NCBI GenBank assembly: GCA_002633005.1
Contig: NMRA01000053.1
Coordinates: 590,151-654,150, forward strand
Length of the DNA: 64,000 nucleotides
DNA from: Phoronis australis
Lineage: Eukaryota; Animalia; Phoronida
Direction: 5' to 3'
The notes below the pieces were generated by a model, which was not told the origin of the DNA, made no database searches, and saw only the letters and a program-made list of their open reading frames with translations. The position numbers were made by a program, and so were the translations under genes. How positions within the stretch are numbered: position 1 is the first letter of the stretch; each line of letters opens with the position of its first letter. Below, piece after piece: positions 7,531 to 64,000 of the stretch.

Positions 7531-7586
7531 TCAACCAGAAGCCTTGTCGGTCTTGAGGCGTTTTTCGTATTCTTCTTCACTGAGTT
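7531..7586 (-). CDS. Terminal coding exon (ELSEEEYEKRLKTDKASG*)
   Basis: Strong acceptor tgtattttcag, phase 1, TGA at 7533-7531. Confidence 0.65.
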
Positions 7587-10500
7587 CTGAAAATACAACA
7601 GCCTATTGTACACACACCTAAACAAGCATAAATCTAGAGCAACAGTCACGGACAGCCTGAGTTAATTATTTAAGTACTGTATATAAAAAACCTTGTTCAT
7701 TAGGTGCCACATTTCAGGTACCTGGTCAATGATCTGAAAATCGAATTCGAAATTTCGTGCATAGGCCCGAACGAGAAAACAAGGTTAAAACCCTGTTTCG
7801 GTGTGTACCATCAAAACTGGATGAGAAGGGGAGGGTGGGTTAACGGACCCGTGACCCCTGTTCATTGCCAAAATGCCCTCACCCCGCTTGAAACCATTGT
7901 ACACGCTGTACATTTTAATTGTTGGGGCATAAGTGGGCTAAAATATGGCATGTACTTTGTGATGAAACAAGGTAATGCTTGAGTTTAACGATGTTTTTCA
8001 TTAGAGTGGTAGTATATGACTATTGTGACCAAGGTGAAACTCAGGCTGCGGCCTCAAGGCGATGTTCCTTATCTATATGTCGGGGAATCCATTGAGCAAG
8101 GCGCTGGTTAAATCACTGCCACGTGCAAGAGCGACTAGCTTCGTCTGATAGAACCTGGCCATTTCCGTTTGCTTACCACCAAACTTACTACAAAACGTAC
8201 CGAGAGTGACGATATTACTTCATGTACGCCAATCGAGGTACGTTTTGTATTTATTCCATACGCTTCGAATTCCTCAGTTTCTTTCATGTTTCCGCAAATT
8301 TTTTGAATACTTCACTCAGACTGTTCACATGGCGAATCACATCCTATTATGTATGTACTTGCGCGTTAGGTTGCAAGTTTTCTCTAGTAAAACAAACAGT
8401 TTTAAATGTAACGATTTATTACTTGAAAAGAGATAACAGCTCGGAAAACAACGGCAACTTAGCACTGAACTTGTAACATCTCGTGAAAATAGTTAAAAAA
8501 CAACATTTGAAATTGTAGTTACCGTGGAATCGGCGCCTGAGTTGCAGACGATATAATATTTAGCAAATGAAAACTGAGACAGAACTGTCATATAATTAAC
8601 AGTCCTGTTCCAGATGTTACGATTGGGATCTGATTGCATGTTGAGTGTTATTTACTCTGCTATAATTGAATCACTTTAAAATATTTTCGGAAAGTTTGAT
8701 GATCGAACCAGCTAATGAGATCGAGTCGACATTGCCCTACCTTTCCATGTCAGAGGTCACTGTTAAAGTAGCGCGGAGGTGAATACGGAAAACATTATTA
8801 CATGGCCGAATTTCCTTCCACAGATTCAACGCGCATGAGATAAATTGCTTGAGTGCATGTGAAAGCGCAATTCTTGCTTTGATACTGTAAATGTTTTTAG
8901 ATACTAATAGCCTTGATTAAGGAAATAGTTTGTCTGAAAATAATACAATCTCGAAATGTCACTTTTGTTGTACCGTATAATTAATACACTATGTGCGCGT
9001 ATTTAGGCCCGTGTACCTGGCCACGTTTGAAGCTGCGGCTATATCCAAAATTAGGTGGACGCGCCAATATAAGATTAACGATTTTAGTAAAAACGCCCTT
9101 GAAAGTGATACTGTGGAATTTGTGCACCCCCTCATTTTTAGGAAATAATAGCATATCAAATATGAAAACATTACAAATAATTTTGCACATGTCAGTAACT
9201 AAGACTGGAGTTTTATACGTGTCATTTCTACAAAGTACGTTCGCAAGTAAATCTAACGATGTCCTATCTGTGTTATAATGTAGGAAATGCGCTGGGAAAG
9301 ATTATACGCTTTTGCCGAAGACAAAGCGCCTGCCCGCATCAACAAGCATTATTTCGGATACACTTCCTTATGCTTGGGTCTAAATACGCGTAGCCGGCTT
9401 CTCTTTGAGAGGGTCATGCAGTTTGCCAAAGAGCCGAAAAGCAGTAATTGTTTTACGACATTGACCAACATTTGAATATGTTTTCTCATGCTAAATAACA
9501 GATTATTTGTTTTGGAATTTTTTTGATTTTGCGTCGTGGTTTTGTTACCTTCGCGTCACACATCAAATTTTGTAATAGCAGCATAGCTAAACCGAAGTGC
9601 AGACATTAAATGTGACTTTGGTCAAACGGGAATTTGGAATTCATCTAAGAAAAACATCCCTGTGGCAGTTTGCATCAACTAACGCTATTTCACAATCCCA
9701 ATAATATAAAATTATCTACATTTAGTAAAATGCAGCGTGATAAACGTAAACTTGAAATAGGCACGCTTTTGCGAAAGTCATTTTAAGCATTCTGTGACAC
9801 TGTTTGAGCTAAAATACCTAAAGCAGGTGACGACCCCTATCTTTATTGTTACTTAGAAAACAAGGTGGGCGTCAAAACACCCAGGAAACCAAACAGCGCC
9901 TGCTCGTGGACAAGCAAATTAAATTTGAGGTATTCAACATCAAAACAAAAAAACTTTTACCTACGCCAACATAAGAAAATCAGTGAATCGGGAAATAGAA
10001 TTGAAGTTGTTAAATTTACGTCGAACAAAGCATTAACCTGTCTTGAAAAGGACTTCACTCATTTATTCAATCAAAACTGGTTTTGCAGAAACCCATGTAA
10101 AATCCGCACAAGTGCCTGTGTTTAGGCGCCTACAACAAGAAAACTAATTCGATGACCCTCACATATTTTTTGCAGACTTGTAGCATGCAAATAACACATA
10201 CAAAGTATGAAATATCAAAAATTAACGATAAATCAAAACTGATCCTATTTCCACTTCTTCAGTTTCAAAAGATTCTGGAAAAAGCTAATTTTCGGACAAA
10301 TTACCCCTGACAATTCCTCAAACTTTTTCCCTGGGAGCCCTACAGTACAGTGCTTTGCTTTAGGGCCCATCAGATTGTTAAGACGGTCCATAGGCATTCA
10401 CAGTGATAATACCCGTGCTCCGATGACATTCAGTGGCTAAATGGTAATCTCAAAGGATGACTCCAAACAATTAATGTAAATTTGATACTAAGTTGTAGTC

Positions 10501-22500: not shown

Positions 22501-22557
22501 TTGCGATTTCTGTTTTTTGTCAATATTTCTTTGTATGTTCTGTGTATTCTTCAATAA

Positions 22558-22621
<64 letters not shown>

Positions 22622-40600: not shown

Positions 40601-43600
40601 CATCTTGCCATACCTTTGAGGCTGGAACTGTAATGCGTTAGTAATACACAAGTAAATGGTTGCGTCCAACTTGGCCAAATGTTCATATTTTTGTTTTTGT
40701 TTTATTTTATCTTTATCCAGATTAAAGTAACATTGCGAAAACACGACTATATCGAGTTTGCTGGTAACTATAATTATACCACAATATTAGCCTCGAATGG
40801 CCGATACAACCGTGTAACAACCCAAATAGTTATCTCACTAGTGAGATAACATTTTGGCGGGAAACGAGGCCGGGTTCGAACCCGGACCGCAAGAGTTTCG
40901 GTCGTCGACTTTACCACCGTACCACTCAGCGGCTGACGTCATCGGACGTGAAAATAGAATACTTATGAGCACGCGCAACACTCGCATGCTCAACAAAGGG
41001 CACTGTACTGAGATTTATACGCTATGAAAAACAAGACGCACAATTTCCACGAAAACTATATTTTAATTCACTGAAATTTTTCTCTCATGTTCTCTCACTT
41101 GTAAATCACCGATCTCCAATTTGAATGCGGGTATCGTGTCGTCGGGATCCTTTGACTTGAGAATTATACTCTGTTACCAGTTAACTTTAACAGACAGTAG
41201 TTTCTCGGTCGAAGCTCAGTATGATAAAATGTGTAGTAAGCTATAATGGTTGCTAAACCTTAATTTATACATTCCCTTTATTTCTACTTATTTTAAATTT
41301 TCAATTGGTTTTGAGTAAAAGCATTATGTGACAAAGTTCACGACCTCCGACCCCGGGCCTCTGACATAGAAAGTAGTTACAAAGCAGAGGCGAGTCGATA
41401 AAAGGTAGATCGATTCATTGCAATGTTTCTTGTTCAGTATGTTGTATAAATAGATTATTGCATGTTCTCAGTCGTTATCCCCCTTATCTAGAGCCCTCGC
41501 GGATTTTGTACAATTATCGCCCGAGGGGCGTCAGCGCCTCGGGCGATAACGACTTCGCCATGTAATAATCTACATTTACACAAGTGAGTATCGACAAAGA
41601 AATGAATGTAAAATTTTCCATTTTTTGATGGAAAGTTAAAGACTGATTCTAAGTTAAAGTTCTTTTGTGGCAAAATAACATATAATTAAACAAAAGGTAA
41701 GAACTTCACGTTAATGTGTACAGAATGTGGATTATGAACTGCTTTAATATATTATTAGATTATTTTACCTTCTTTATCTTGTGGGATACTTCCACTGGAA
41801 AAGAAATACCATGAGTCAGAGGTAAGCGTGGGGGTAAGACTTGAGAGACGAAATGCATTATAAATGTCAGTTTCGAACTAGATCGTGTACTAGATAACGG
41901 GGTTAATACCCTTTATTTTTATAGCACGTTTACTACATCCCGCATATGTGAACATTTGGTAATTTTTTCAACTTTCATCGCAATTGTCTACGCGATGCCG
42001 CAGCCTTCGACCATTTCGTTAAATTGATTCGTCAGTATCACAATCAATAATGACAAACCATTCATTCCACAATCGCCCTCACCATTCCTGCTCTGTGTAT
42101 CTCCTTCAGGTCAATTGTTTCAAGGCAATTTAATTGCTTCAACATAAGAGTGGAGTAATTTTTGATCTGAATCGTGGCTAGATGATACAATCGTGAAATT
42201 TGGCACAGATTTAGACTTTGACTGAGTTTTTGAAAAAAATATTTATCCATCGAAACCTCAAACATGGCGGCCATTTTTTTCAAGATGTGAAGGTATTTAA
42301 TGACAAAATTGTCTCTTATACCTTGAGGTTACAGTCATTGTGTTTTTGCCTTCTTGAAATCAATTATTCCATCGTTTATTGATTTATGTCCAAACACTCT
42401 AGTTATGACACTTAATCATTAAGAAAAAATAACAGTGAAACAAAGAATCAATTGCCCTTGACATCAACTTGTTGTTCAGTGGTGTCAAATGTCCGACAAT
42501 TTGTTGCTTATGAATAAAAACGTACCTGAATTAAATTAAGTAAAATTCTATGTCACTATCAGTTTAGAGAATTTGGCCTTGCTTGAGGACCACATTTCAG
42601 TACCAGCTTTTCTAGACATGTGCCACAGCATACGGTAAAATTGGAAACACTCTGGGGTTGCCAGAGAAGTCCATGGCGGATGTTTTTCGTTCACAAATCA
42701 GCCACAGAATTTCCTTCAATGGCTACTGACGAAACCATAGATCTGGAATGCAAACTTCGATCTCGTTTCTGAGCATTAGCCGCCCGTGCCTGAATTTAGT
42801 TTGCATTCGTTTGTTCCGTTGTGGGGAGGTTGAATAAATGTCCACTTCCTTTGCTAAAGGTTGTAGGTTCGAGTCCCACTGAGGCACACCATTGAGTCAG
42901 CTCTTTAGCACCCCAGACAAAAGTAATACAAACGACTAGATAAGTCATTGTTGATATTATTTCAATGATTCAAAAGATTTCTGTTCTAATGGTGAACACG
43001 CAATCACGAGAGCAAATTTCCCGGGAAAGGACTAACTCCTTGTACCCACGAAGAACCGATACTCGAATATTTTACATGTCTGGCATGCTGTGTGGGATGA
43101 CTATAAGTCACTGACGATTGGTGCCAAAGACACGGATATTCTTGATGCATACACTATAAGCAGTAGGCAAGAGCGTGTGTGCGTGTGCGCGCGCGTGTGT
43201 ATGCATGAACGCTCGCGAGGGTGTGTATGTGTTAGGCCATAGTCCCAGCTCTCCTATCTTTCAGCTCCACGACTGCTTTTGGGGAGAAACGGGAACTTTG
43301 CATACTAGTCAGGTTTTTGTGTAATTTTGTTGGAAATTTAGGGGGAAAGTGGAAACTATACATTTTTGAAAATCTCATGGAATGACAAATCAGAAAATAA
43401 TTGATTCCATTTTTTGCGGCCATCTTGGCAGCCATCTTGGATTTTCAAAAATGGCGCCGGTAAAATGGATTTTGTCCAATATCTACACTTTTGGGTCTCT
43501 GTTGGTTTTTATGGCTACACCTGCATTTCTCAGGTCAAGGAATTGAGAATTTTAATTTCTTGGGCGCCATCTTAGCAGCCTTTTTTAAAATGGAGCCCGT

Positions 43601-46600
43601 AAAATATATCTTACTCAGTATCTTTGATCTTGGGTCACTTAGAATGTTAGTTTTAATGGCTGCACCCACATTTTTGTGGTCAAGAAATCTGAAAATGCAA
43701 CTGAGAAACATAATCAAAACCTCACTTATTAGCAGCCACATTTTCTAAATGCATTCTTCATGTAATCCAACACATATGATCACTATCTTACTTTCTTGTA
43801 TATTTTGTTCGGAGCTTGTTTCCTTCAAGACACTTAAAACTAAACCAGTACCTAAACAACTTATTTACGTTTGAAGAACGTGAAAGTTTGTTTTTTTTGT
43901 AGTGTCAACAGTCTTTCAAAACTTTGAAATCAGTGTATGGATCATTACTATAGCCACCACTGTCATCAGGAACCACATCATCATCACTATTCTGACATTC
44001 AGCACTAAACTGACATACATCTGTGTAAGATAGGTTCTTTGATCGGCAAGAGCATCTTTGGGAAGAGGAATTGTTTTTGCACTGGCATCTAACCATCTCA
44101 ATGATAGCCTCTGGCGCCGGAAGCTCCTCAGTTATGAGTGTTTCAGTTGGTCATCTTTGTCCTTATAAATTCATTCTGCAATGGACCAAGGAGCTCCTGT
44201 CGAGCAATGTCTGCCTGGCCCCACACTCTGGCTTGAATAAACACCCTCAGCACATGTTGTTTCAAAGCACCAATGGTTGGTGGACGTTTGTCGCTGTCAG
44301 CCACATGTTTACAGAAGAGGTACCATCTCAGCTCTGGGATGCTATTTGTGTCTATACCCTGTGGTGAGTATGCACATGTAAATTGGGGCTAATGTGCAAA
44401 GAAGATCACCTGTTACTTCATAAGCAGTACAAAAAGTCTGCTGTACATTGATATCATCGGTGTTTGCCTTCAAAATATATATTCAACCTACAGAATGGAC
44501 CAGTGTTGTCTATCCATGTAAAAGCATGGAAAGCAGGAAGAGCTATTTGCTCGGACAGCACCTAATATTGTGCATATTGGATTCAACTTCACAATCCCAG
44601 ATGCCATGGGGACTGAAGTATTTCTGAGAAGCCTGTCATAATAGGCAATGACGAGTAAGTTGAGCCTTTTTTGGTCATGGGAGAGGAAACGGTTCATTGG
44701 GATGTTCTTTATGTAAGTCTCATGTCTTATCTGGTACAGACTTACTTGACCCATTCTCTGCCTCCTTCTTTCTCTTGTGGCTTGTTTCAAAGAGTTGTCT
44801 TTGTGGGTGTCAAAAACCGGAATGATATCGTCATAATCTCTAGTTAAGAAAATCACTTCCATATTATCCACACGTGCAGTTTTGTGGCTTCGGTGAACAC
44901 ACTCATTGGATGTTGTTTACATGTTTTCTGGGTCTAAAACCACTTTTGCAGCTTGAGGACTGTCCTGTTCTAAGACGTCTGCCTTGGAAAGTTTCTGCTC
45001 AAGGTGGATTCGATTCCATTTGTCTGTGAATGACAGCATTGCCCCACTGGCAGCAAAGATTGCTCTTGGTATTAGGGTGAATTCATAGTGGCTGATTGCA
45101 TGTTTCTGGTCGATTTGCCCAGCAGGCTACAACTTCTGTGGTTCTCGTCATTGATCCTCAGCCTGGTTACTGCTAAGCTTATCTGCCATCCGACTGTCAA
45201 AGGCAAAATGCATTTCCACTGAGTAGAGGAGAACTGGATTCCAAAGTGAACAGTGGAAATAATACCGAAATCTTCAAAAGATATGTCTCAAATGTCTTTT
45301 CAAAAAGATATAGATATACGCTGTTAATATACATGTAGGTTAATCTGCGATTCTGTGATTTCTTTAAATATTCTTGGGGTTCGTATCTGCTATTAAAATC
45401 ATTTAGATTATATGTACCATTTTAGAAATTTTTTTCAATTCCTAAAACTAACGTTCTAAGTGACCCAAAAGCAGAAATACTGAGCAAAATGTATTTTACG
45501 GGCGCCATTTGTGAAATTTTAAGATGGCCACCAAGATGGCCGCCAATAAAATTAAAATTTCCAATTCATTGACTTCAAAGCTGCAGGTGTAGCCATAAAA
45601 ACCAACATTCTAAGTGACCCAAAAGCGGATAAATTAGGCAAAATCCATTTTGCCTGTGCCATTTTTGAAAATCCACGATGGCCACCTAAAATAGAATCAA
45701 TTATTTTCTGATTCGTTTCCAAAAATGTATAGTTTCCACTTTCCCCAAAAAATTCCAACGATTGTCAAAATTTGGACATAGTAAACCTGACTATACAACC
45801 CATCTACAGATATTCAAAAGTCAATTTCAAAAAAGAATGCGTTTAGTAAGAATTTTAATTTGAAAAAAATAACATCAGCTAATATGTTAGCCACCAGAAC
45901 AACCAATGAGATGCCAGGAAAATAATGTATCTTTACCTTTCCCATTCCCAAGATGTCTGCTTCATGAAAACATTCGAGGACAGCCAGCAGATCCTATCCT
46001 GCTGGCTTGACTAACTTGTTTACAGTTACTGTTAACACTGAAAAGTATTAATTCTTGGATGGGTCTGCAAGTAATGGGCAGTTATCAAGGGCCAAGACTC
46101 ATACACGTAAACCAGCAGGCAGCAGTTAGGAATTGAGGAAATCCAAGTCAAAAGGCAAGTGTCAAACTCAAAGTCTCATCATAGCCTACTGATACAATTC
46201 TTGGTATGTTCCTGAATCATTTGTGCTTCCGCAAGTAGCAGTTTTGAGCCAGCTAGGACACTGCTGAAACCATGAACTATTGAATGATTGTGCGACTTCA
46301 CAATAGACTGGCAAGATGTCTGCCCCTTGTTGCATTCATGTCTCAGATTCTGCTAAAAATTCTGAGCTCCCGGAATTTTTGGATATTACGTAGTCTAAGG
46401 CTACTGCAAAAATGGATCAACACTGAGTGGAAGTGAACTATCATTGCTGAGAAGTTTCTAAGTTTTTTTTGAAAAAACAGAGCTCTTCAATCACAAGCAG
46501 CGTTACAGATACTTTGCGGATGCAACAAAAATTGAAATAGCTATTAAAAAAGAAAAAAAAACCAAGCTGGTGAAGGAAGCAATGTTGAGCCTACTAGAAA

Positions 46601-49600
46601 ATTAAGGGTATTGTCACTGTCATTTCCATTTAACAGTGCTCAAAGAAATGTATATGTGTGGCCACCACAATGTTTCATTTGTCACAAATCAAAGCCTATC
46701 ACAGAGAATTTCACAAACAAAAAAACTTGAAAACCTACCCCTGTTTCAAACACTCACCTGTAAATAGGCCTACCTATTCTCGATTCGAAAAACTCATTTA
46801 TGGTAAACAATCTTTAGTTTAGGCTAGAGAAAAAAGAATTATTTGTCTTGAAAAATTTGCAGTATTAGCCGTCCCAATGTCAAAGGTACTGGCAGTAGTT
46901 TTTACCTTCATGTGAGTGATCAGCACTGCTTTTTATGTATAGTAATTCATTATCTTGAAAATTCAAATGTTGCTCCGATTTCAGGGTCTCGCATTTTGAA
47001 GATTCTTAAATAGAGAATTTTTAGCGTTCGGAAATTTTTTTACTCTTAAATTCATGTGCTATCTAAAACGGGAAGCATCAAAAGAATTAGCTCTGCGGTA
47101 AATAAGATGCTTTCCAATTTCACACAGAAACTATTGCCAAAATGACCATTCCTCTATTTTCAAAGGCTGAACTACAATTTTGGGATGATATTTTTTTTCC
47201 ATGTCTTAAATTGTTCAAAGGCAACTGTACTGTGCAATCAATGCTAGTAATGATGCTCATTTCTCTTAATGCTTACTTTTGCTGAGAACTAACAAAATCA
47301 AATTTCACTCGTTGGCCGTACTGTGTGCTAAAGGGAAAAGCATTTTGGTTATCTGTTTCAGTAAAAGTATCATTGTAACAAGGCTGTAGTGTTTAGATGA
47401 AACGATATTCAGGGTCACAAAATTTTTCTATTCCGGGTAGGGTGCAGGCTTGCAGAGGTATTTTTTAAACTTTGTCATTTAAGTCGGGCTCAACATTATT
47501 TTGTGTTTCCTGGTCAACTCATGGAAGGCATTGAACCTTTTGTATGCAAGCTGTATTGCGACTCATCAAAAGTTAACAAAGCACGCTACTACATATTCAG
47601 GTTGAAATCTATGATGGAGTCATTTCTGCCTCCTAATCGTGATTGTTTGCTGTTACAAGCCAAAAGATCAAACTACCACCATGCCCTTCACAAATAAGCC
47701 TTGCAACAGCACGTCAGTGCACCATCTCCAGCTGGTAATGGGTGGCTGTTGGCGTTTGTTAGTCTGAAGTTGCACTGGATAACTCTGCCTTTAGCCCCAG
47801 AAAATGTCATGAAAAATTTTAATTACAAGTGTAAAATGAGAGGTTGTAGTACAAAAATTTGCTCCTGTTTGCCATGTTATAGGATGTGTGGCTCTAGAGA
47901 TTGTGTAAACATAGTGTCTCAAGAAACAACTTTTAATGACAATAAACGACGATGGAGTGAATAAAGAAACATAATAAGTTTGTGCTGTTATCAAAGAACA
48001 TTAAATCTGTAGCCAAATGGAAAATATTGACAACATTTTATCATGCTCATGGCTGTCTGGACTGCACGGTGTATCGTTCCCTGTGACAGTAGACAGTGAA
48101 TTGCAGTGTGGATAATGATAATTAATTGCGACAATTAATGTAAGTGGTGAAAGTGAACTTATTGCAAAAACGTTGGAAATGTATGTTGTTCATACAGTAT
48201 TTTTGTTGTGATATCAAATCTCCAAATGGTTAATAGTATTGTTCTTTTGGTAGGACTTAAGAATATATTAGTAAGTTTTCTGGCCTGCAACATGAGGCGC
48301 TGCTAAAATTTTTATTTTTCTCTTTTTGAGCAATTTTCCACGTAATGTCATAATATTTATCACTTTTGTGCCCACTAACTTCAAATGAACAAACCCCACT
48401 GAAATTATCATTCAGTTTTTGGCTAGTGTTGTTGGTTTTTGAAGATTTGTTTTATGTGCCAATTTTTAGATCAAATTTCTCGAAAACGTGCAAGTCAAAC
48501 CTTGGGAACTTTTTAGATTCTTAAAGTATAGTACTCAATGACCTTAAAACACCAAAATTTTCTTGCCCCCAAAAAGTAGCCACGGAAGTGATTTTCAAGG
48601 CCTCCTAGAGTCGAATGGACTATGGCCTATGTGAGTGTGGGGTGCATAAAAAGTATCAGTTCCGAGAACCCTGTGTACTTTTGAAAGCTTCCAAATCCAT
48701 CCATCTTCTCCATCGAAGTAGAAGGACTGTCAATTTGCTTTTGCTTCGAATCAGGCTCGTAAGTTTCTTGCCACGGAGGGTCAGATTCAGCCGCAAAGAT
48801 GGAAATATTGCCATGGTAACTTAAGAAAGTTCAATTACAATCCCTTTTAAAATTCAATCCAGCAATGACGCTGCTTCGGCAGAACAGTTACGCCCATGAC
48901 GGAAGTTGTTTTTGACACCAGAACATGGCTTGTGCAGTGGTCTTAAAACATTAGTTTGTCTCTATCATTCGTTTACTTACTTGCTGTAAATCCTGTCATC
49001 CTCTGTCTTGGAAGTCAAACCAGTACCATCCTGTGATACATAACACAGTTTAGTCAGAAAATGACACCTCTTGCATGTCTTAACTTCAACTCTGTAATAA
49101 CACTTCTGAATGGGTAAGTGACTGCAGCGAGCCGAAAAATGATGCCGCATGTTTTCTGATAAGATAGTTGGTGTTTGAGAATTTGCAACCGTCGCACAGC
49201 AGTTGTTGTGACTAGCATTTCAAATCGGAGGAACTATCTGTTGCAAGGTATGTATATTCCTGTTACGACAACTTTGTTAAAAGTTGTTGAAAGTTCAACA
49301 CTCAACCAAGACACTTGCGAAAAATATAGCGCAAGTCTTTGCAAAATATAGCCATAAATTACACGCAAAGCGTATGGTCGCATTAGGTTTATTCCCAAGT
49401 ATTATCCATCTTCGGACCGCAGCCCAGGCTGAAGTAAAAATTACCAAGTACCGCTTAAGATGAATTCTCACCGTTTTGACGCCCACTTACGTAGTAATTA
49501 GTAGTTATAACGTCACCCCTGTTTGCACTTGGGGGCAGCACAATGTACTCATTGTCGTTTGCTTCGTGTTGTTCTGAAAATTAAATTCCCGATTAGCTTA

Positions 49601-52600
49601 ATAGAAAAATACTGGGTTTCACGCTGTCGAAAATTTTGTTCGTTGATATCCCTTACACCTTATTCCCTTACACTTGTATGTTTGCATTTCCAACCGCTTA
49701 GAACAACTTTAAAGACTATGACTGAATTTCAAAGTAAACTGTGCAAAAATACTCACCGACGTCCTGTGGAAGGTTTGCTATACGTTTTAATTCATTTTTC
49801 AGTTTCCAGATTTCTTCCTTCGCATCATCTTTTTCTCGGATGTGCTGACGTTGCAGATCTTTTATTTCTTTGTCTTTCTTGTCCAAATTTTCATGGTATT
49901 CTGTTTCCTTACGTTCTAGTTCTTTGTTTTTCTTTTCCAAATTTGCATCGTATTCAATTTCTTTGCGTTTGAGTTCCATTTGTAGTTTTTTCTCAATTTC
50001 CATTGGCTCTTCAGCTAACTTCGCGTAATGATCCAGCTTACTTTCTAATTCACTCACTCGCTCTTTAAGATTCTTATTTTCAGCAATAAGCTTATCTCTC
50101 TTACATTGAAATTGCGCGTTTGCTAATTCAACGTTATTTTTATACTGTTTCAGTGCCGCCGCTGTTTTGTCGAGCTGTGCTTCTGAAGAGTTCGCCCTGG
50201 CGATGTGCGACTCCAGCGTTTCTTCAGCCTTTTCCATCCTTTTTCTGTACTCACGTGCAAACGCCTTCTCATCACTGAGTTCTTGTTGTAACTTTGACTT
50301 GCTTTTTTCATGCTCAATCACTTGGTTTTCCAGCTCACGAATACGTGAACTTAAAGCCATCTCTTTCTCAACATGGTTGGAGCAAAGAAGTTCAATTTTT
50401 AAACGCGCTTCGTCCAGCAAACATTGCTTATCTTGCACCAACTTCTCCAGAACAGCGTTTCTATTCTGCCGACGATACTTTCTAACATGTTGCATATTGT
50501 AGGACGATAATTCCAACACGTGTAAAATATTTTGAGTGGAGTAAGCAATCCTCCGCTTTCTAGAAGGCAGGTATTCTGTCGTTTTAACTTTAAGCTTGTA
50601 TTCTGAAAGTGAATATTTGACAGCAGTTTCAATCCTTAGTTCAATTTGAGGTACTTTTTTTGAAACCAATATAAATTTCACATTTTTGCCAGATGTGTCT
50701 CTTTTGAGGCGCTTGTAATATTAGAACTAACACGATGCTCATTCATTTTTGGAGATTTGTAATAGGCATAGGTGAAAATACAAAATAAAAAAAAATGTTG
50801 TAATTGTTAAGTGTCATTGTAACGGGGCTGAAAAATAATTCCAAGGGATGCTAAACCTTATTTTGGGCTCTGAACAGGGTCTGTATTAATGAAATCTTTA
50901 AATGTGAGATGTAGTGAGAGGATATCTAGTGTAAGGGCCAAGATAAGAACAAAATGTCATATCTCCGTTTCAAAATTAGAACCGAAATCGTTCTAAGATG
51001 AGACCAGAAGCCTGTTACAGAGTAAGCTTAAGATTAGACTTCAGGCCTAAATGACCAAAATTTAGGACCAATATTACTGTAACCTGTTGAGGAACAAATT
51101 TAGTTGATATTTTCACAATCTTATGTCCCTAAACAATGTCAAATTGGAGATCGGAGGCTTTCGATTCGAGAACTGGCAAAGGCTGAAGAGACAATGCAGT
51201 GCGACATAGCTTCACACATGAAAGAATACCATACCAGGGTTTTCTCTAGCAAGCGAGATTCCCATTGCGCCCAAAATGTCAATAAAGCCCCATTTGGATT
51301 TTTAAGATCACGGCTATTCTTTAAACCAAAATTTAGCACACCGACTCGCTTAATCTTGTGAATTCGCAACAAGTGGCGGAAGCGTAGTTTATAATCTCAC
51401 TTACTTCAAAAACCGACTTTTAAGTTAAAATTAAAATTAAAATTTCTCTCTAAGTCAAGACCCAACTTAGTATTCATGAAAAGGTCTTTTCTGAAATTTC
51501 GTCTTCGGTCTTAACTTAGTCCGATTCAGTGCAATGGGCCCACATTCGAGGCCTGCGCACGTCTGGTACAACGTGTATCAGACCGCCTCCAATTGTTTTG
51601 TTGTTTAGTCCGATTTTCGGTCTTCACTTAGACAAGTTTTCAATCTTAAGTTTTAAGTCAGTTTTCATGAAACGGAACCCTGGTGAAATCAATAAAAACA
51701 AGTTTTAGTGTCTCAGCGCATCCATGCTTTAAGGAATACTTGAGCACACTGACCCTTATTCATACTCCAAGTTCTTTGACATCATTAATATATATTGATA
51801 ACTCGTAGATAGAGAAATAGCATTCAAGGTATGAATCTCACCTTTCGTAAGCTCGCGACGCATTTTCATGTAATAATCGAAATCCATAGCAGGCTTAACT
51901 ATTGCAGGATTCATCGAAATAAGTTGTTTTTGCTCGTCTGTCATTGCTAGGTCCATCAACCGCCTTAAGAAACCGTCGCGGTAATGTTCGTTATTAAGCA
52001 CAATCCAATATTCGTCCAGTTGACAAACACTGCTAAATTGTAAAGTGAATATGATAGAGCCTTCGCGAAGACTTGTAACTGTTGTTTTCGTGTCTATTAG
52101 GTCAACTTGTTGGGGTTTCCAATCGCGTGTAGAATATTGGACACTTTGACCATCATCCACCGAGACGTGCAGCTCACATTCAATAGCTGAAAAGAAAAAT
52201 ATGCATTGCACTCACTTTTTGGATCGTTTTAGAGGTATGTCACTGTATAGCAAGGGTACCAAGTCATAAAATTATTCACAGAATTATGAATATATAACCT
52301 TAACTTAGACAGAAACAGTAACTGGTAATGCCACATCAAATCGCTGTCGCAGAACTTCAACTTAGGTAGTTTAACCCTAGTAAGACCAAGCTCGTTCAAT
52401 ACAAATTTCGTCCATTTTCGTGTGTATAGTATTACTACATGTACTAATGTCAGCTTGGGCAACGAAGTTCGCGAGCAAACGATATTTGAAATAAATTGAA
52501 ATGTTCAACTATGTTCAACTTACGAAAAATGACGAATGATCGTGAATAAAACTCTAAAATTCAAATTAAAAATGTCCAAAATCACCAAGTGTGCGGGTCT

Positions 52601-52857
52601 TAGCATTCTCTAACATTTATGGTGGAAAAGCTTCTCGGAGTTCCGGCAACATTTTGATCCTCAATTATCGTAACAGAACGCAAGTTAGAGCATCTTTGGG
52701 ATGTCTGTACCTGGTATAAAGAATACGATTAGTTTCCACTGGTTTAATCTAAATTTTATCTGTCTTATTCGCCGAAGTCTGATACACCACATTTAAGTTA
52801 TCTTCGCGAATTTTACAAGTATTTAAAGCAAGTCCTTGAAACGAATTTTGCTTGTGG

Positions 52858-52889
<32 letters not shown>

Positions 52890-53032
52890 ATCGTCACCAC
52901 CACCACCATCACCACCACCACCATCACCATCACCATCACCACCATCACCACCACCAACACCATCACCACCATCACCATCATCATCATCATCATTATCATA
53001 ACCATCACCATCATCATCATCACCATCATCAC

Positions 53033-53078
<46 letters not shown>

Positions 53079-54784
53079 GTCATCATCATCATAACTATTA
53101 ATTGCAATCGCGTAAACCTAAAAATTATGATTTTCACGTAATTTCCACAGACAAGATTATTTTGAACTTGCAATTTTCTATTTCATTGTCTACAAAAATT
53201 TGTCAGGGATTTTAAGACCTTTTAGTCCGAGATTGCTGCTGTCAAAATTCAAGATTTTCCATCTTTTCAAGGAACACCAAAGTGTTCAATTCAGGCTCGA
53301 AGTCCTCAACAGAAAGTCTAAAACACATTTTTGTATCTAATAGAGCATGGAAAGAGAATTAAATAGTGTCACGAGAGTAACGGCATTTTCCGTGAAAAAT
53401 CACAAGATTTAAAAAACACAATCTCGCGTTAATAAACCTCTGGCCATTATTTTCATACACTTCAACCTACTGTACTTAGTTAATGAGATCAAATTTTAAA
53501 GATACATATGCGTTTGCTGTTAGGTTAAGCCCACCACAGTTTCCGTGGGCAAGTGCCATAAGCGAAAAGCCACTTTTGCAATTTTCGTCTGCAGACATAT
53601 TACAACACCTCAGCGTTCCACAGACGCAGCACGAGGACACACTGAGATTTGTCTGCTAAATTCTTGTATCTACTGATCAAAGCACAGGTTTTTTCGATTC
53701 GTGTCCAACCGTATTCTATTGAAACAGTCAGTCGGCCAAAATCAGAAATATGATGGCAAAATCTTATTGTGGCTCATTTAAAACCCCGGGGAGAGGTTAT
53801 CAAGGCAGCAATACTCAATTCATCTTAGTAACACCCCTAAGTTTCAACAGCATGCATTCTGAGCAAGGCTGCCTGGTTGTAATACAAACTTAGTCTGGAA
53901 CCTGAAAAAGCTGATACTGACTAACTAATGCCTCGTTACCGTGGCAACATTGTCACTTTGCTATGAATGTGACTTTCGTTTTCGCTAAATTTTTGCTAAA
54001 ATACGTGACCATGTCGCCCGATTTATGGCAGATTCATAAAAAGACTAAAATCAAATTCTACGCGCTTTCTAATTTCAGAAAGTGTGTTTTTACCGAGAGA
54101 ACCTAGTTTTGTTGACATTTTGACTACACACACAATGAATGATTGAGGTTTAATAATAAATTATTAAGTGGCAATGCCAATAAATGATTTGGAATCCCTC
54201 GGAGAATAATAGTGTAGTCAAGATGCCAAATTTACCACCATGTATCCAACGGCGTTTTTACCTCAAAAGGTGTAACCCTGTTGTTCGCGGTATAGTCAAA
54301 ATCCCGACACCCTATTTCAAAACTATTTCAAATTTACAAACCTTTGTCCTTTAATGATGATTCAAGCTGGTCTGCAACGTGTCTTTGGCTATCTATCTTT
54401 TTCAAATATTTGATAAGCACAACAAATGCTTGAGAACCCAGTTTTGGAAGAATAAGCAATAATTTGCGGATCTTGTCTGTATCTGTTTCTTGGTTGTCGA
54501 TTGTTTCTTTCAGATGACAAGTTATTACTTTCTTTTGCAGTAGATAGTCAAGAAGCCCTCCCTTGATGATCAGGTTGCGAGCCATAAACAACGAGTTTTC
54601 CCGCAAGGCACTCCTTTGCTCTTCGGACATCTCTTTTGACACCTCTTTTCTTGGTTGGTCTGGGGGTAATAAAGATATATATGTGAGTAGCACCAGGCCT
54701 TGGTGCTAAAAAAGATGTGATTGCTATGTGCAAAAATAAGGTACTCTAAAAGCACTTACCCCTCCCCTTCCAATATGCCATCAT
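7531..54784 (-). CDS. Multi-exon gene (24 coding exons, ~1205 aa): CARD - TRADD-N-like - coiled coil - VWA - 2x MIB/HERC2 - WWE protein
   Basis: Exons in transcription order: 54760-54784, 54342-54659, 51842-52186, 49757-50602, 49491-49573, 48981-49030, 41769-41794, 40523-40627, 39891-40034, 39699-39776, 37109-37228, 32409-32531, 31877-31951, 28311-28423, 27332-27442, 21383-21515, 19294-19409, 17188-17377, 15779-15928, 15442-15527, 12863-12933, 12040-12225, 10505-10572, 7531-7586. All introns are GT..AG and phases chain with no stop; the sum is 3618 nt = 1206 codons including TGA. The VWA-to-WWE half is very secure; the join to the CARD half relies on short linker exons. Confidence 0.72.
10505..10572 (-). 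CDS. WWE domain exon 2 (TYTIDFNKEEARHGDSVMQILRQ)
   Basis: 'Y.IDF' WWE motif; acceptor cttgtag, donor gtaaga; phase 2-1. Confidence 0.82.
12040..12225 (-). CDS. WWE domain exon 1 (VWFYLDKSNEWLMYSQETTILLDLKYKEN..EIEIDG)
   Basis: W.y.d....W..Y.......l...y pattern; acceptor tatttcag, donor gtaagt; phase 2-2. Confidence 0.85.
12863..12933 (-). CDS. MIB/HERC2 #2 C-half (VRWPNGHCNAYRCGSEGCFDLEV)
   Basis: 'V.W.nG..N.YR.G.eG.fDL' motif; acceptor tttgtag, donor gtaagt; phase 0-2. Confidence 0.92.
13056..13945. mobile_element. hAT-like non-autonomous element with 6-bp TSD
   Basis: TIRs CATAGGCGGATTTAGGA / TCCTAGATCCGCCACTG, subterminal GGCCCCCCCC tracts, and CAGAAC duplicated at both flanks. Confidence 0.8.
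14480..14860. repeat. Foldback element built of TAGTCATGACTA-like motifs
   Basis: ~65-bp inverted arms (~14556-14623 vs ~14727-14794) plus many gactaa/tagtca units. Confidence 0.65.
15442..15527 (-). CDS. MIB/HERC2 #2 core (GPDWKWGNQDGGAGEVGTV)
   Basis: Canonical RGPDW.W..QDGG.G..GTV signature; acceptor ttctttcag, donor gtaagt. Confidence 0.95.
15779..15928 (-). CDS. Exon with C-half of MIB/HERC2 #1 and start of #2 (ITVEWD..RRYDFG..FDI..VGIKVKRG)
   Basis: 'V.WD.G...Y.fG....D' motif; acceptor tttatag, donor gtgagt; phase 1-1. Confidence 0.9.
16059..16233. mobile_element. Short MITE
   Basis: TIR aattgacctatcgc / gcaataggtcaatt. Confidence 0.6.
17188..17377 (-). CDS. Exon with N-half of first (degenerate) MIB/HERC2 domain (LPLGSRVV..GTGTVVKH)
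   Basis: 'LP.G.RV..G.GTV..H' pattern; acceptor ctattcacag, donor gtttgt; phase 0-1. Confidence 0.85.
19294..19409 (-). CDS. Helical linker exon (DKANILDLVPDKLSFKNWL..DPVEL), phase 1-0
   Basis: Acceptor tgcttcag, donor gtaaga; the only exon found that bridges phase 1 to 0 here. Confidence 0.75.
19632..19934. mobile_element. Kolobok-like MITE with TTAA TSD
   Basis: TTAA|AGGCGAAGGCAACC ... GGTTGCCTTTGCCT|TTAA (14-bp TIR, one mismatch). Confidence 0.8.
21383..21515 (-). CDS. VWA domain exon 6 (SFLKSLAQNGNGVY..)
   Basis: 'FL..LA..G.G.Y' VWA C-terminal motif; acceptor ttttattttaag, donor gtaggt; phase 0-1. Confidence 0.85.
22400..24250 (+). mobile_element. Diverged copy of the same Academ-derived element
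   Basis: Shares blocks with 46300-48400, e.g. gaacc.tttgtatgcaagct (23434/47534), acatattcaggttgaaatc, cctcctaatc and taacttcaaatgaacaaa; boundaries approximate. Confidence 0.65.
22559..22621. repeat. (TG)n(TA)n microsatellite
   Basis: Directly visible. Confidence 0.97.
24640..26130 (+). pseudogene. Decayed Ty3/gypsy LTR-retrotransposon gag-pol fragment
   Basis: Zn knuckle CPAKGKTCGICGRLNNFIHKC, protease remnant (YSGASTNVL), RT motifs (MRAVNKAIIRERHTIPT.., RYKRLNFG.., NISDDI) and RNase H start (LTDGSP), in PR-RT-RH order; many frameshifts and stops. Confidence 0.9.
27332..27442 (-). CDS. VWA domain exon 5 (ARMRVMSAV..RIDIVACGADYEQ)
   Basis: Helix plus beta-E 'I.hh..G'; acceptor ttccacgcag, donor gtaaaa; phase 0-0. 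Confidence 0.82.
28311..28423 (-). CDS. VWA domain exon 4 (RIVVFSDGYP, MIDAS Asp)
   Basis: 'hhhhSDG.P' motif; acceptor cgttttag, donor gtacgt; phase 1-0. Confidence 0.88.
30313..30723 (-). mobile_element. THAP-domain DNA transposon 5' remnant (Kolobok-like terminus)
   Basis: MVWCIVPAC..W..RVCGRHF..DF is a C2CH THAP signature. It lies ~165 bp inside a TTAA|AGG terminus (plus strand cattctcctttaa at ~30711-30723); no transposase downstream. Confidence 0.7.
31877..31951 (-). CDS. VWA domain exon 3 (DILSQGGGTPMVEALTEAQKEV, MIDAS Thr)
   Basis: GGGTP..AL..A motif; acceptor aacttccag, donor gtttgt; phase 1-1. Confidence 0.88.
32409..32531 (-). CDS. VWA domain exon 2 (LKENVGIVTFGG..LQSLTCNY)
   Basis: VWA beta-B/C pattern 'V.IVTF'; acceptor cgttccag, donor gtaaga; phase 1-1. 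Confidence 0.88.
33719..36897. mobile_element. Non-autonomous Academ-like TIR element (~3.2 kb)
   Basis: Left end tagtccacg..cagcca..agcggcaaggtgggggtca is the inverted match of right end tgaccccccgccttgccgct..tggctg..cgtggactga; TAC flanks both sides. Confidence 0.6.
37109..37228 (-). CDS. VWA domain exon 1 (TVFCIDCSDSMG, MIDAS DxSxS)
   Basis: Beta strand plus D-C-S-D-S motif, then helix GFKHVRQAFRTLV; acceptor tttttcaag, donor gtaagt. Confidence 0.9.
39699..39776 (-). CDS. Linker exon (GQVDNGKVMMNALINTLTQIYTNKRF), phase 1-1
   Basis: Acceptor gccttag, donor gtaaat, 78 nt open. Confidence 0.62.
39891..40034 (-). CDS. Linker exon (DTAPNVLLDEIKATDFKNDEENNDGGAAYAHVPQDAGAKAKAGQLSKQ), phase 1-1
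   Basis: Acceptor aattacag, donor gtactt, 144 nt open. Confidence 0.72.
40523..40627 (-). CDS. Linker exon (VPASKVWQDGIKPEFKIDEENNDGGAAKALINKSL), phase 1-1
   Basis: Acceptor cattacag, donor gtaaat, 105 nt open; paralogous to the two following exons. Confidence 0.6.
40790..41580. repeat. Interspersed repeat copy 2 (tRNA-like segment on minus strand plus partial palindrome)
   Basis: Same-orientation match to 2856-3600; minus-strand A/B-box-like TGGTACGGTGG..GGTTCGAACCC at ~40925-40873. Confidence 0.85.
41769..41794 (-). CDS. 26-nt micro-exon (NGSIPQDKE), phase 2-1
   Basis: Acceptor tttcttttccag, donor gtaaaa; restores frame between 48981 and 40627. Confidence 0.55.
43306..45793 (-). mobile_element. 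Academ-like DNA transposon, internally deleted and decayed
   Basis: Termini TAGTCAGGTTT.../...AAACCTGACTA with long imperfect TIRs (~43306-43700 vs ~45400-45793) and 3-bp TSD TAC on both sides. Minus-strand remnants VFDTHKDNSLKQATRERR and EMVRCQCK..RCSCR..NL..TDVC..C.N resemble Academ transposase and its Cys-rich C-terminus. Confidence 0.8.
46300..48622 (+). mobile_element. Academ-derived element remnant (second family), 3' end ...GGACTA
   Basis: Remnant EPFVCKLY..VNKARY.IF..LPPNRDCLLLQAKRSNY..*..PSPAGNGW..LAPENVM..KCK..GCSTKICSC at 47530-47910; left boundary uncertain. Confidence 0.7.
48981..49030 (-). CDS. Linker exon (DGTGLTSKTEDDRIYS), phase 0-2
   Basis: Acceptor tgtatcacag, donor gtaagt; only phase 0 is open. 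Confidence 0.68.
49491..49573 (-). CDS. Linker exon (EQHEANDNEYIVLPPSANRGDVITTNYY), phase 1-0
   Basis: Acceptor tttaattttcag, donor gtaagt; the open frame bridges the phases of its neighbours. Confidence 0.7.
49757..50602 (-). CDS. Long coiled-coil exon (282 codons, phase 1-1)
   Basis: 846 nt open frame, E/K/L/Q-rich with heptad-like periodicity (ELENQVIEHEKSKSKLQQEL.., KLIAENKNLKERVSELESKL). Acceptor cactttcag, donor gtgagt. Confidence 0.88.
51842..52186 (-). CDS. TRADD-N-like domain exon (phase 1-1)
   Basis: TVTSLREGSIIFTLQFSSVCQLDEYW..followed by helices; resembles the 'v.egSi.f.l.f.s...l..lw' signature of TRADD-like N-terminal domains found with death-fold domains in invertebrates. Acceptor ttcttttcag, donor gtgaga, 345 nt. 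Confidence 0.65.
52855..53095. repeat. Compound trinucleotide microsatellite (GTC/CAC/CAT)n
   Basis: Directly visible; it explains the poly-Met/Val and poly-Ile/Thr ORFs. Confidence 0.97.
54342..54659 (-). CDS. CARD-domain exon, proximal copy (phase 1-1)
   Basis: MSEEQRSALRENSLFMARNL..GLLDYLLQKKVIT..KETIDNQETDTDKIRKLLLILPKLGSQAFVVLIKYL..QRHVADQLE; acceptor ccccag, donor gtttgt, 318 nt. Confidence 0.88.
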
Positions 54785-54821
54785 AATTTCCACAATAATG
54801 AGGAAAATATACAGAAATAAT
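54760..54821 (-). CDS. Small exon probably carrying the start codon (MMAYWKGR, ATG at 54784)
   Basis: Strong acceptor ttttctttcag and donor gtaagt. The ATG is in frame (phase 1) with the CARD exon 54342-54659. Confidence 0.5.
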
Positions 54822-57249
54822 CTGAAAGAAAATTCAAGACAAAATAATAGTTTTATTGGAGATTTCCTATGCGTGCCATTTTTCAGTTAATTATGGAGAA
54901 AGGGCAAGAATTCAAAAATAAGAGTTGGCGAATGGTGTCACTGGATGCAGACACTGAATAAGCTGTTCACATCTACTGCAGAATCCAGCGCAATGACGAT
55001 GACGCCGTCTGAATTGGCAGCATCGATTCTCGATAACCAGTTTTATGCTGCCTTTACAAGCTTTTAAGTTGTTTCTGAAGGTTTGGCCGGAATAGATTCG
55101 TCGTTAGCCTATTAATCGCTCTTGAAATCCTATTACAGTACTTGTTCGGCTGCGGAGCACCATTGTGCAAATAAAGTGAACGCGTTACTTGTTGCTTTGG
55201 CGTTTCTCGCAGGTAGGCATCTCTTTGAATATTTTTTGTTGGTAGAGTTGCCTGATATTTACATACTGTTGTCTCAGATACCACAGAAACGTTAGTTACA
55301 TGGCGCTGTGTTGCATGCCATTTATTCTCAACAATTGGTCATCGACGCCGATTTTCTGAAAGTCAAGGCACGATTTTCTAATAAAAACTGTTACGGACTC
55401 CCATCTATTGGCTGTTGCATAAACCACAGTTGAAGTTACTGTATAACTATAGGTGGCGCGCTAGTCGCCGCGCATGTGCAACCCCATTTTTCTTTGGTGA
55501 CGAATTTTGAACTGAGACGTGTTTCTTGTTCGTTCCCATGTCATCCCACACAATTTCGTGTGTCATTAACAAAAACTGTAAAGCTGTATTTCACCCTCTT
55601 TATCTGGCTGAAAACAAAACTCAAGTTAAGCTCGGTGTTATAAGACGTGCTATATTTGCAGTCGATTTGCATTGAAAGTTTTTGTGACTTCTTGTAGGAG
55701 TCAATCGTTCTGCTATCAAATGGTCTTTTCTGAATCTACTTTTCAGTGTACATAACATTGTTCTCTTAACATCTTCCTTCCAAGCGTGAGTGTCCACTTT
55801 ATGATTTTTTCATCAAAATGCACTGAGTGTACATTCAATGTTACCATGGTCATCTCCGCCGTCGTGGTGGTCGTGGTGGTCGCCGCCGTCATCACCAAAA
55901 CTATTATTTGCACGAAATGAATTTTCAGATGCTTGTAATCACGTAAACTTAAAAATTATGGCTTTCACGTAACTTTCACAGACCAGAATATTTCGAAAAT
56001 TTGAACTTGCAACTTTGTAATTTTGTTTCCTACAACTTGTCAATACTTTCAAATACTTTAGAGATTGCTGGTGTCAAAATTCAAAACTTTACACCCCTTC
56101 AAAGAACATTGGAATATCCGTCTTGAGGACAGTCGTTTTCTCAGGCTCAAGTCCTTAATAAAATTTTTGTACCTAATGGAACAAGCAAGCAAAATGAGCA
56201 AGTGTCACGGGAGTGGCGGCATTCTTCGTGAAAATCACAAGACTTAAAAAACTCGATCACGTGATAATAAACCTCTGCCCGTCATTTTCATACACATCGG
56301 CCAACTGCACTCAGACACTGAGATCAACACGAATTCTAATGATACACATGCAATTACTGTGGATAGTTTCAACAACTGAGATTAGGTCACGCCCACCATA
56401 GTTTCCGTTGATAGGTTCCACAAGTGCAAGGCCACTTTTGCAGAAGTCCTCCCCAAACATATTAGAACAACGGTCCAGCGTTCCGCAGGCGCACCACTAG
56501 AACACCCTGAGCTTTAATCGTAAAATTCGTGTATCTACTGAACACAGCACTGTAAGGCTTTTCCGATTTGTTTCCCATGATATTTCACTGAAATTGTTAC
56601 GGTCAGTAGGCCAAAATCAGAAATTTTAAATGTAATATCAAATACACGTTAGAAGCCCGCAATCATGGTCAAATCGTATTGTTGCTCGCCCGTGAGACCT
56701 AGGGGAGTGGTTGTCAAGTCAGGGATACTCATTTCCTCTAAGTAACACCTTTAAGTTTCAATAGACGCAGCATGCATTCTGAGCAATGCTGCCTGCTCAT
56801 AAAACAAACATAATCTCGAAACTGAAAGTTCTGATAATGACTAACTAGTGCAACATTGTCCCTTTGCTATCAATGTGACTTTCGTTTTCGCTAAATTTTG
56901 TCACATTAATAAAAAGTCTAAGATCAAATTCTACGCGCTTTCTCCTTTCAGAAAATATGTACTATTACCGAGTTAGAGCCTAGTTTTGTAGACATCTTGA
57001 CTGCATACACAGACTTGTCGTTGAAGTCCTACATAACCTAAACAATGAATGATAGATGTTTAATAATTAATTATTAAGTAGTATTATCAATTAATGATCT
57101 GAAATCCCTCAGACCATAATAGTGTAGCTAAGATGACAAATTTACCACCATGTATCCGACGGCGTCTTTTCCTTAAAATGTGCAACCTTTGCTGTTTGCG
57201 GCATAATAAAGTCTCAGCGCCCTGTTGCAAAACTATTATGTTTACAAAC

Positions 57250-57570
57250 CTTGATCGTTTAAGGATGGTTCAAGCTGGTCTGCAACGTGTCGTTGACAAT
57301 TTCTCATTTTCAAATATTTGATAAGCACAGCAAATGCTCGAGAACCCCGTCTTGGAAGATCGTCCAATAACTCGCAGATTTTATTCTTATCTGTTTTTTG
57401 GGCGTGGATTCTTTCTTTCAGATCACAAGTTATTACTTTCTTTTCCAGTAGATAGTCAAGAAGATCTCCCTCCTCAACAACCAGGTTGTGAATCATAAAG
57501 GTCCGATTTTCCAGCAAGGCATTCCTTTGCTCTTTGGACATCTCTTTTGACATCTGTTGTGGTGGTTGGA
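57250..57570 (-). CDS. CARD-domain exon, distal duplicate copy (phase 1-1)
   Basis: MSKEQRNALLENRTFMIHNL..DLLDYLLEKKVIT..KERIHAQKTDKNKICELLDDLPRRGSRAFAVLIKYL..QRHVADQLE fits the six-helix CARD pattern (LLD.LP.RG..AF..L...L). Acceptor ttacttccag, donor gtttgt, 321 nt. Confidence 0.85.
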
Positions 57571-63730: not shown

Positions 63731-64000
63731 CATAGACTATAGTACATGGACCGCCAACTCCGTATACTTTCAATGGACGAAATCTGTGAGCTTACGCACA
63801 AGCCTTTACGTCATTATTCACTGGCGACACCTGGCTAAATTATCTGGTGTAATTTCCGGCAAGTACGTCGTCTGCTAATCATGGTCGGTTGCTGTGTGGC
63901 CGGTTGTTCGGCTACGCAGGCGAAATGCAGAGGCGTTAGCTTCCATAGTGTACGGAGACCCCAAAATCCGTTGTGGGAGAAAAAGTTATGTTCTCGCGTC

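Follow-up and report, generated by a model that had tools for sequence, protein, structure and literature searches.

In the brachiopod Lingula anatina, an expansion of the DEDD2 clade of TRADD-N proteins was tabulated by Kaur et al. (2021; PMC8195603, Figure 4 source data 1), where the proteins are labelled as uncharacterized. XP_013388646.1 (1221 aa) and XP_013417662.1 (1192 aa) contain a CARD, TRADD-N, a coiled coil, vWA, two Mib/Herc2 repeats, and WWE, and four Lingula proteins in total are annotated with this fusion, the others being XP_013421821.1 and XP_013421834.1 (PMC8195603). Other Lingula versions end at the vWA or in SH3+SH3, and proteins with CARD and TRADD-N only are present too (PMC8195603). 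Therefore, a constant head is joined to a variable tail in this expansion. A conserved uS motif and a switch model of TRADD-N, the latter a prediction, are given in the same paper. Cnidarian DED+TRADD-N(NCOA6)+vWA proteins (PMC8195603) share the order death fold, TRADD-N, and vWA with the protein described below, but they carry a DED instead of a CARD, belong to a different TRADD-N clade, and lack Mib/Herc2 and WWE.

A protein of the Lingula type appears to be encoded in the window, the whole stretch of 64,000 nucleotides of Phoronis australis DNA that was analysed. On the minus strand, the model rebuilt from the sequence has 24 exons with all 23 introns GT-AG and in phase, the same count as in the preliminary description, and the spliced ORF comprises 1301 aa from the first Met, its sole stop being the terminal TGA. 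The length of ~1205 aa given previously has to be revised; omission of one CARD exon gives 1199 codons. As an open multi-exon chain, the gene is real; Rfam gave no matches. In our main reading, held at a probability of roughly 0.6, one spliced gene encodes a non-enzymatic scaffold, 1301 aa or longer, with the predicted order CARD-CARD-TRADD-N-like-coiled coil-vWA-2xMib/Herc2-WWE. The scaffold likely belongs to the shuffled TRADD-N kind and serves in the cytosol as an adaptor for immune or cell-death signalling. Its architecture, compared by domain table, suggests membership of the Lingula-type CARD-TRADDN(DEDD2)-CC-vWA-MIB-WWE proteins: XP_013388646.1 and XP_013417662.1 have the same domain order, no enzyme domain, and 1192-1221 aa against the 1199 codons of the one-CARD form. 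The adaptor had been proposed as new, but the identical order was already tabulated for Lingula (Kaur et al. 2021, PMC8195603). Two features differ, namely two CARDs in Phoronis against one in all four WWE-bearing Lingula rows, and the probable Ser/Thr/Pro-rich N-terminal repeats of the Phoronis gene.

CARD1 (57570-57250) and CARD2 (54659-54342) each occupy a phase 1-1 exon and match Pfam CARD with E values of 1.2e-14 (54.5 bits, cut-off 23.9) and 7.5e-14, respectively. CARD2 is spliced, and the CARD1-CARD2 joint is present, in contigs assembled from a public sequencing run (X1), which is presumed to be RNA and whose contigs do skip GT-AG introns. Among solved structures, CARD1 is closest to the RAIDD CARD (E 5.9e-05), and vertebrate TRADD and RAIDD/CRADD are likewise non-enzymatic death-fold adaptors; in TRADD, the TRADD-N precedes a Death domain and binds TRAF2, a property that is not general across the superfamily. 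CARD9/CARMA are CARD-coiled-coil proteins, in which the coil clusters the CARD, and RIG-I and NOD2 are sensors with CARDs in tandem. The Phoronis protein resembles both groups, but it has no MAGUK, helicase, or NACHT, a TRADD-N-like domain lies between its CARDs and the coil, and its tandem CARD, unlike that of RIG-I or NOD2, is a local exon duplication.

The segment 53102-55382, which holds CARD2, matches 55933-58249, which holds CARD1; judged from this alignment, CARD2 is a tandem duplicate of CARD1, flanking intron included. Identity between the two CARD exons is 81%, no different from that of their flanks (78-81%); dN/dS is 0.94, and a value near 1 is also compatible with relaxed selection. 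Over 318 aligned letters the CARD pair has a single, in-frame indel, whereas the flanks have 43 indels (30 of them frameshifting) over 1804 letters. This pattern is as expected of a coding, fast-changing immune domain, and the origin of the tandem CARD by exon duplication, with divergence at the rate of its introns, is, from the alignment, a new observation. One may also suppose that the gene is a redundant copy in a birth-and-death family, under relaxed selection and still transcribed but with little function. The CARD exons being no more identical than their flanks would fit this, as would the degenerate WWE and first Mib/Herc2 repeat, and in raw reads of three RNA runs (X2-X4, 18-19% of each run) nearly all depth lies on intronic repeats and hardly any on coding exons. 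However, the entire exon chain is open, the CARD pair has no frameshifting indel compared with 30 for the flanks, the MIDAS-type and GS motifs are intact, and X1 has spliced contigs, so that a redundant copy is quite unlikely.

The 5' edge at 57570, formerly taken as the gene start, is not one. In one X1 contig (record 6), 29 letters that match nowhere in 38450-58400 precede 57571, and therefore 57570 is a splice acceptor. Upstream, at 60754-63455 on the minus strand, five probable coding exons (63455-63410, 62903-62803, 62119-62074, 61567-61467, and 60799-60754) have GT-AG introns and lead in frame into CARD1. They are copies of a two-exon unit (46 nt + 101 nt) within a ~1.3-kb tandem repeat that encodes a 49-aa Ser/Thr/Pro-rich repeat, and the exon copies have no indels compared with eight in the intron copies. 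A repeat-coded N-terminal extension is thus probable from its reading frame, and the gene may extend past the upstream edge of the window. Another first-exon candidate, ending at 59366, was rejected since its last base misfits the one-letter overlap of record 6. Exon duplication is seen at work in this gene: each CARD has a phase 1-1 exon to itself, and local duplication likewise gave rise to the linker and to the probable N-terminal repeats.

The TRADD-N-like domain lies in one exon (52186-51842), which is spliced in X1, including to the CARD exon. Pfam TRADD-like_N scores E 0.072, below its cut-off, and AlphaFold on the exon alone (single sequence) was uninformative (pLDDT 38). In the ESM Atlas, the top match is a TRADD-like_N cluster (0.94; 214 of 256 features), 15 of 30 matches fall in the TRADD-like_N set, and TRADD-like_N clusters rank above those of NCOA6. 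The GS (uS) motif is found as EGS at aa 249-251. The identity of this domain, weak in Pfam, is therefore supported by the ESM Atlas and the GS motif. It is followed by a long coiled-coil exon of 282 codons (50602-49757; spliced in X1), which is rich in E, K, R, and Q, shows a 3.5-residue periodicity in five of ten windows (p<0.05), and has generic coiled coils as its only look-alikes in the ESM Atlas. Six short linker exons span 49573-39699 (49573-49491, 49030-48981, 41794-41769, 40627-40523, 40043-39891, and 39776-39699), of which 40627-40523 and 40043-39891/39776-39699 have their source in a local duplication. A 6-nt exon candidate at 39498-39493 has strong sites, yet it was excluded because it would introduce a stop in phase 1.

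The N-terminal half, from CARD1 to the linker, is spliced as modelled. At least eight of the nine introns within 38450-58400 are present in spliced X1 contigs, among the joints listed, and a single contig of 1097 letters, with 19 differences over 999 letters, runs through the coiled coil, TRADD-N, and CARD2. Mapping of RNA across 49757>49573>49030>41794>40627 had been recommended as a check, and these joints, and those as far as 40043, are found in X1. X1 does not cover exon 39776-39699, which transcripts may skip; the frame is kept when it is left out. Invertebrate TRADD-N expansions are known solely from computation; for the CARD-TRADD-N-coil half, the Phoronis copy now provides support from RNA.

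The N-terminal half might instead be a gene of its own beside a second gene, or a short isoform that predominates, with CARD-CARD-TRADD-N-coil terminating near 38227 and vWA-Mib/Herc2-WWE starting from a first exon that ends at 37491. Behind an acceptor at 38227 come a stop and AATAAA at 38174, the donor at 37491 has an upstream phase-1 ATG, and the Lingula proteins with CARD and TRADD-N only would be a precedent. Such cryptic sites are commonplace, however, as AATAAA lies within 100 nt of 27 of 155 acceptors and a phase-1 ATG accompanies 20 of 101 donors. Region 38450-39781 has no X1 depth that would represent a 3' UTR, and therefore a terminator and a new promoter would both need to fit into ~1.2 kb. 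With the fused form annotated in four Lingula proteins, a two-gene arrangement is very unlikely, and phase, parsimony, and the Lingula precedent support the predicted joint between the CARD and vWA halves.

In the C-terminal half, the vWA (37228-21383) is formed by six exons (37228-37109, 32531-32409, 31951-31877, 28423-28311, 27442-27332, and 21515-21383). The first matches Pfam VWA (E 1.7e-4), positions 1-32 and then 37-62 of the VWA_2 profile fall on the first two, and the remaining four score nothing singly. The MIDAS pattern consists of DxSxS, a loop Thr, and a late Asp; here the set is complete, with DCSDS at aa 787, GGGTP at aa 856, and FSDG at aa 893; metal binding is putative. After an in-frame GT-AG exon without Pfam match (19409-19294), two Mib/Herc2 repeats occupy four exons between 17377 and 12863 (17377-17188, 15928-15779, 15527-15442, and 12933-12863). 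The first of these exons has no MIB match, and the Pfam MIB_HERC2 matches are E 0.011 (profile positions 40-65), 2.2e-08 (8-30), and 2.9e-06 (42-64); repeat 1 is degenerate in its first half and repeat 2 is canonical. For both vWA and Mib/Herc2, profile positions climb with exon order.

The WWE is split over two exons (12225-12040 and 10572-10505). Pfam WWE matches at E 1.4e-05 (positions 1-39), and the first half aligns to the WWE of DTX1 (E 0.0065) with Trp and Tyr kept. In ADP-ribose-binding WWE domains, the residues that contact ADP are a conserved Trp, Tyr, Gln, and Arg (PMC11269756). The second WWE exon matches nothing by Pfam or alignment, and no acceptor in the model is weaker than that at 12225. 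Compared by eye with the WWE motif, the second half seemingly lacks the Gln and looks degenerate, and the ADP-ribose sensing proposed previously is doubtful. The terminal exon (7586-7531) holds the in-frame TGA (7533-7531), with ATTAAA at 7293.

No RING, HECT, PARP, or NTPase domain was found in the exon-by-exon Pfam scans, covering 18 of the 24 exons, and the spliced model contains no RING or Walker A pattern and no segment above KD19 1.55; by these scans, the protein has no catalytic or membrane segment. The domain calls of the preliminary description thus hold in their order (CARDs, vWA, Mib/Herc2, and WWE by Pfam, TRADD-N by ESM Atlas and GS motif), as does its absence of catalytic domains. 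The E3 ligases Mindbomb and Deltex share the Mib/Herc2 and WWE recognition modules, but the Phoronis protein lacks ZZ, ankyrin, and RING and is not a ligase. An unlikely alternative is a single protein with a role other than in immunity, serving ubiquitin or Notch-type signalling as an adaptor or decoy that has no ligase of its own; Mib/Herc2 and WWE would capture substrates, and the CARDs would link these to developmental apoptosis. The absent RING, the WWE closest to Deltex1, and the peptide-binding MZM module that Mib/Herc2 repeats form in Mindbomb (PMC11887331) would suit it. However, the ZZ finger is missing between the repeats, repeat 1 is degenerate, and fast CARD divergence in a shuffled, lineage-restricted family suits conflict genes better.

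For the immune or cell-death adaptor, the following mechanism can be proposed. At rest, the TRADD-N-like domain would mask the CARDs; the C-terminal modules may bind a protein ligand, the metal site of the vWA taking an acidic residue and Mib/Herc2 a peptide; upon binding, the coiled coil would cluster the CARDs, which could recruit a CARD-bearing caspase or adaptor through homotypic contact. CARD-TRADD-N would be the constant output and the C-terminal part an exchangeable input. The scaffold suggested by the preliminary description fits the model that has been published for TRADD-N proteins (PMC8195603). The case for TRAF binding, also suggested there, is weak, as MATH does not partner TRADD-N universally (PMC8195603). 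In a bolder and improbable version, the protein is an NTPase-free cytosolic sensor. Its vWA, Mib/Herc2, and WWE would be integrated decoys of substrate receptors from the ubiquitin pathway and would trap proteins of pathogens or targets that are ADP-ribosylated; TRADD-N would serve as a release switch; and the tandem CARD, newly duplicated and diverging fast, would nucleate a filament that activates caspases.

Homologue searches with short, mostly single-exon queries, whose blanks are weak, returned 0 of 34 candidates in a search for longer proteins and no matches among 1.84 billion representatives for the TRADD-N exon, 0 of 3 candidates for a Mib/Herc2 exon, and 0 of 140 for a poorly aligned two-exon alignment. 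On the improbable sensor reading, and given a source species remote from Lingula, which the absent sequence matches allow, the architecture would be an old conserved receptor class and not a shuffle of one genome. Six Lingula identifiers were absent from main texts in the literature search, and no functional study of such proteins was among the matches listed. The architecture itself is not new, and the Phoronis gene can serve to test the switch proposed for TRADD-N. For invertebrate MIB_HERC2 + VWA, one domain survey, of 2007, was found in the literature.

The minus strand, read from 64000 to 4500 except 48500-42500, carries a real gene whose model comprises 24 exons (57570-7531) and 23 introns, all GT-AG; the joined exons stay in frame throughout, and the one stop codon is at the end. 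This bears out the in-phase exon chain of the preliminary description; its length of about 1205 aa does not hold, as the model predicts 1301 aa counted from the first Met, and about 1205 is near the one-CARD form (1199 codons). The GC content is 42.5% in exons versus 38.5% in introns.

Domains were scored exon by exon. Both CARDs are above the Pfam cut-off, and the nearest solved CARD structure is RAIDD. The TRADD-N-like exon matches Pfam weakly (E 0.072), but TRADD-like_N clusters rank highest for it in the Atlas (0.94, 214 of 256 features), and an EGS occupies the position where a conserved uS motif has been described for TRADD-N (PMC8195603, section 8). The coil exon shows heptad periodicity in five of ten windows. 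The first two vWA exons match Pfam in profile order, with the motifs DCSDS, GGGTP and FSDG; Mib/Herc2 matches fall on three exons, repeat 1 lacking the canonical first half, and WWE matches on the first of its exons only. These scores and motifs agree with the domains read earlier. The lack of an enzyme domain noted there also holds, and the spliced model contains neither a RING or Walker A pattern nor a membrane segment.

Four sequencing runs (X1-X4) were mapped to 38450-58400 of the window. Contigs of X1, a run taken as RNA by guess, skip GT-AG introns and match eight of the nine model introns in that stretch (among the 15 of 50 joint rows listed): 57250>54659, 54342>52186, 51842>50602, 49757>49573, 49491>49030, 48981>41794, 41769>40627 and 40523>40043. 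A single 1097-letter contig (19 differences in 999 letters) covers two of the joints cleanly, five others carry the flag 'between: not known', and 40523>40043 differs by one letter at the joint. Because these joints occur in X1 contigs, including all those across 49757>49573>49030>41794>40627 for which mapping had been proposed, the exons of the two CARDs, the TRADD-N-like domain, the coil and the linker are joined by splicing. There is no X1 depth in 38450-39781, so that exon 39776-39699 is without support, and no 3' UTR was seen in that stretch. Of the raw reads taken from X2-X4 (18-19% per run), nearly all fall on intronic repeats. Additional X1 contigs, deeper in coverage and 94-96% identical, align to the coil exon (49772-50296), and another X1 joint set has non-canonical ends (49757>49022, 48986>40591); both are probably paralogues or divergent alleles.

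From the sequence, the head (CARD1 to linker, 57570-39699) and the tail (vWA-Mib/Herc2-WWE, from 37228 downward) very probably form a single gene, the linker end and the first vWA exon having phase 1 in common with or without exon 39776. Two separate genes are improbable. In the gap, an acceptor at 38227 with AATAAA at 38174 might mark a terminal exon and a donor at 37491 a first exon, but sites like these do not exceed background: by matrices derived from the model's own exons, 27 of 155 cryptic acceptors and 20 of 101 cryptic donors are similar. A split would also require terminator and promoter both within about 1.2 kb. A 6-nt candidate micro-exon just above the vWA half (39498-39493, minus strand; donor score 10.5, strong) would introduce a stop in phase 1 and is a possible poison exon.

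Above the 5' end of the model, 60428-63731 holds about 2.5 copies of a tandem repeat of about 1.3 kb, 91% alike, each unit with two candidate coding exons (46 and 101 nt). These predicted exons are in frame with CARD1, extending the open frame to 1420 codons with no start reached, and the repeat is probably the 5' part of the gene; X1 itself shows an upstream exon of some kind. Duplication of the CARD exon took in about 2.4 kb of flanking sequence. Between the two copies, 67 of 105 residues and 81% of bases are identical, the base figure not exceeding that of the flanks (78-81%), and dN/dS is 0.94. A single 3-nt indel separates them, whereas the aligned flanks (1804 letters) hold 43 indels. 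The reading frame is protected and the residues are free to change, a pattern that either diversifying selection or relaxation would give in a two-sequence comparison. That the locus is a decaying gene copy is unlikely. The CARD2-TRADD-N intron contains a trinucleotide microsatellite of about 76 units (52857-53092).

CARDs recruit CARDs, and coils oligomerise. Domain order, head splicing and the absence of enzymes are seen directly, and the product is, with a probability of about 0.6, a cytosolic, non-enzymatic signalling scaffold. The TRADD-N-like domain would keep the CARDs masked at rest. In a published model, itself a prediction, TRADD-N lies between a constant and a variable part, keeps both inactive and changes configuration on a signal; MATH/TRAF is not a universal partner of TRADD-N (PMC8195603). 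The tail would bind a ligand, and clustered CARDs would engage a caspase or adaptor. Mib/Herc2 binds peptides in Mindbomb (PMC11887331) and WWE binds ADP-ribose via Trp, Tyr, Gln and Arg (PMC11269756); ADP-ribose sensing is the least secure step of the proposed mechanism. A non-immune adaptor without ligase activity is unlikely.

The preliminary description offered the architecture as possibly new; however, it is already tabulated for Lingula anatina, where four of the five WWE rows of the source file have it (Kaur et al. 2021, PMC8195603). Further rows for Lingula stop behind TRADD-N or vWA, or have SH3+SH3 as their last domains (among the matches listed, 30 of 77). The same study reports 33 DEDD2-clade copies in brachiopods, DED+TRADD-N+vWA proteins in cnidarians, and tandem CARDs ahead of TRADD-N, with different tails, in oyster and sponge rows (among the matches listed, 15 of 17). 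All such tabulated proteins are labelled uncharacterized (PMC8195603), and a literature search, with subscription journals outside its coverage, found no functional study among the records listed. Therefore, the architecture is known from computation and narrow in that table. Sequence searches, including phmmer, returned no relative's sequence; the empty phmmer result suggests that the library searched contains no close counterpart of this gene's product. Compared by architecture alone, which matches that of the Lingula proteins, it is a further member of a catalogued, uncharacterised architecture. The product is unlikely to be a sensor that carries decoys, lacks an NTPase and is conserved outside Lingula.

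Introns of the gene also hold probable remains of mobile elements. A THAP-domain fragment (30316-30570, minus strand; Pfam E 9.1e-06) is probably a DNA-transposon relic, and broken fragments at 24577-25967 (plus strand) are by eye LTR-retrotransposon gag/reverse transcriptase-like, although Pfam gives nothing for them at E 0.05. Relics that resemble transposases, have Cys-rich ends and are related to one another lie at 43900-44900, 47400-48400 and 23300-24250 (23434-24245 matches 47533-48396), and RNA reads accumulate on 43100-47800. Elsewhere in the window and within an intron, two copies of a repeat of about 700 bp (2856-3596 and 40878-41549) are 81% alike and abundant in all four runs.
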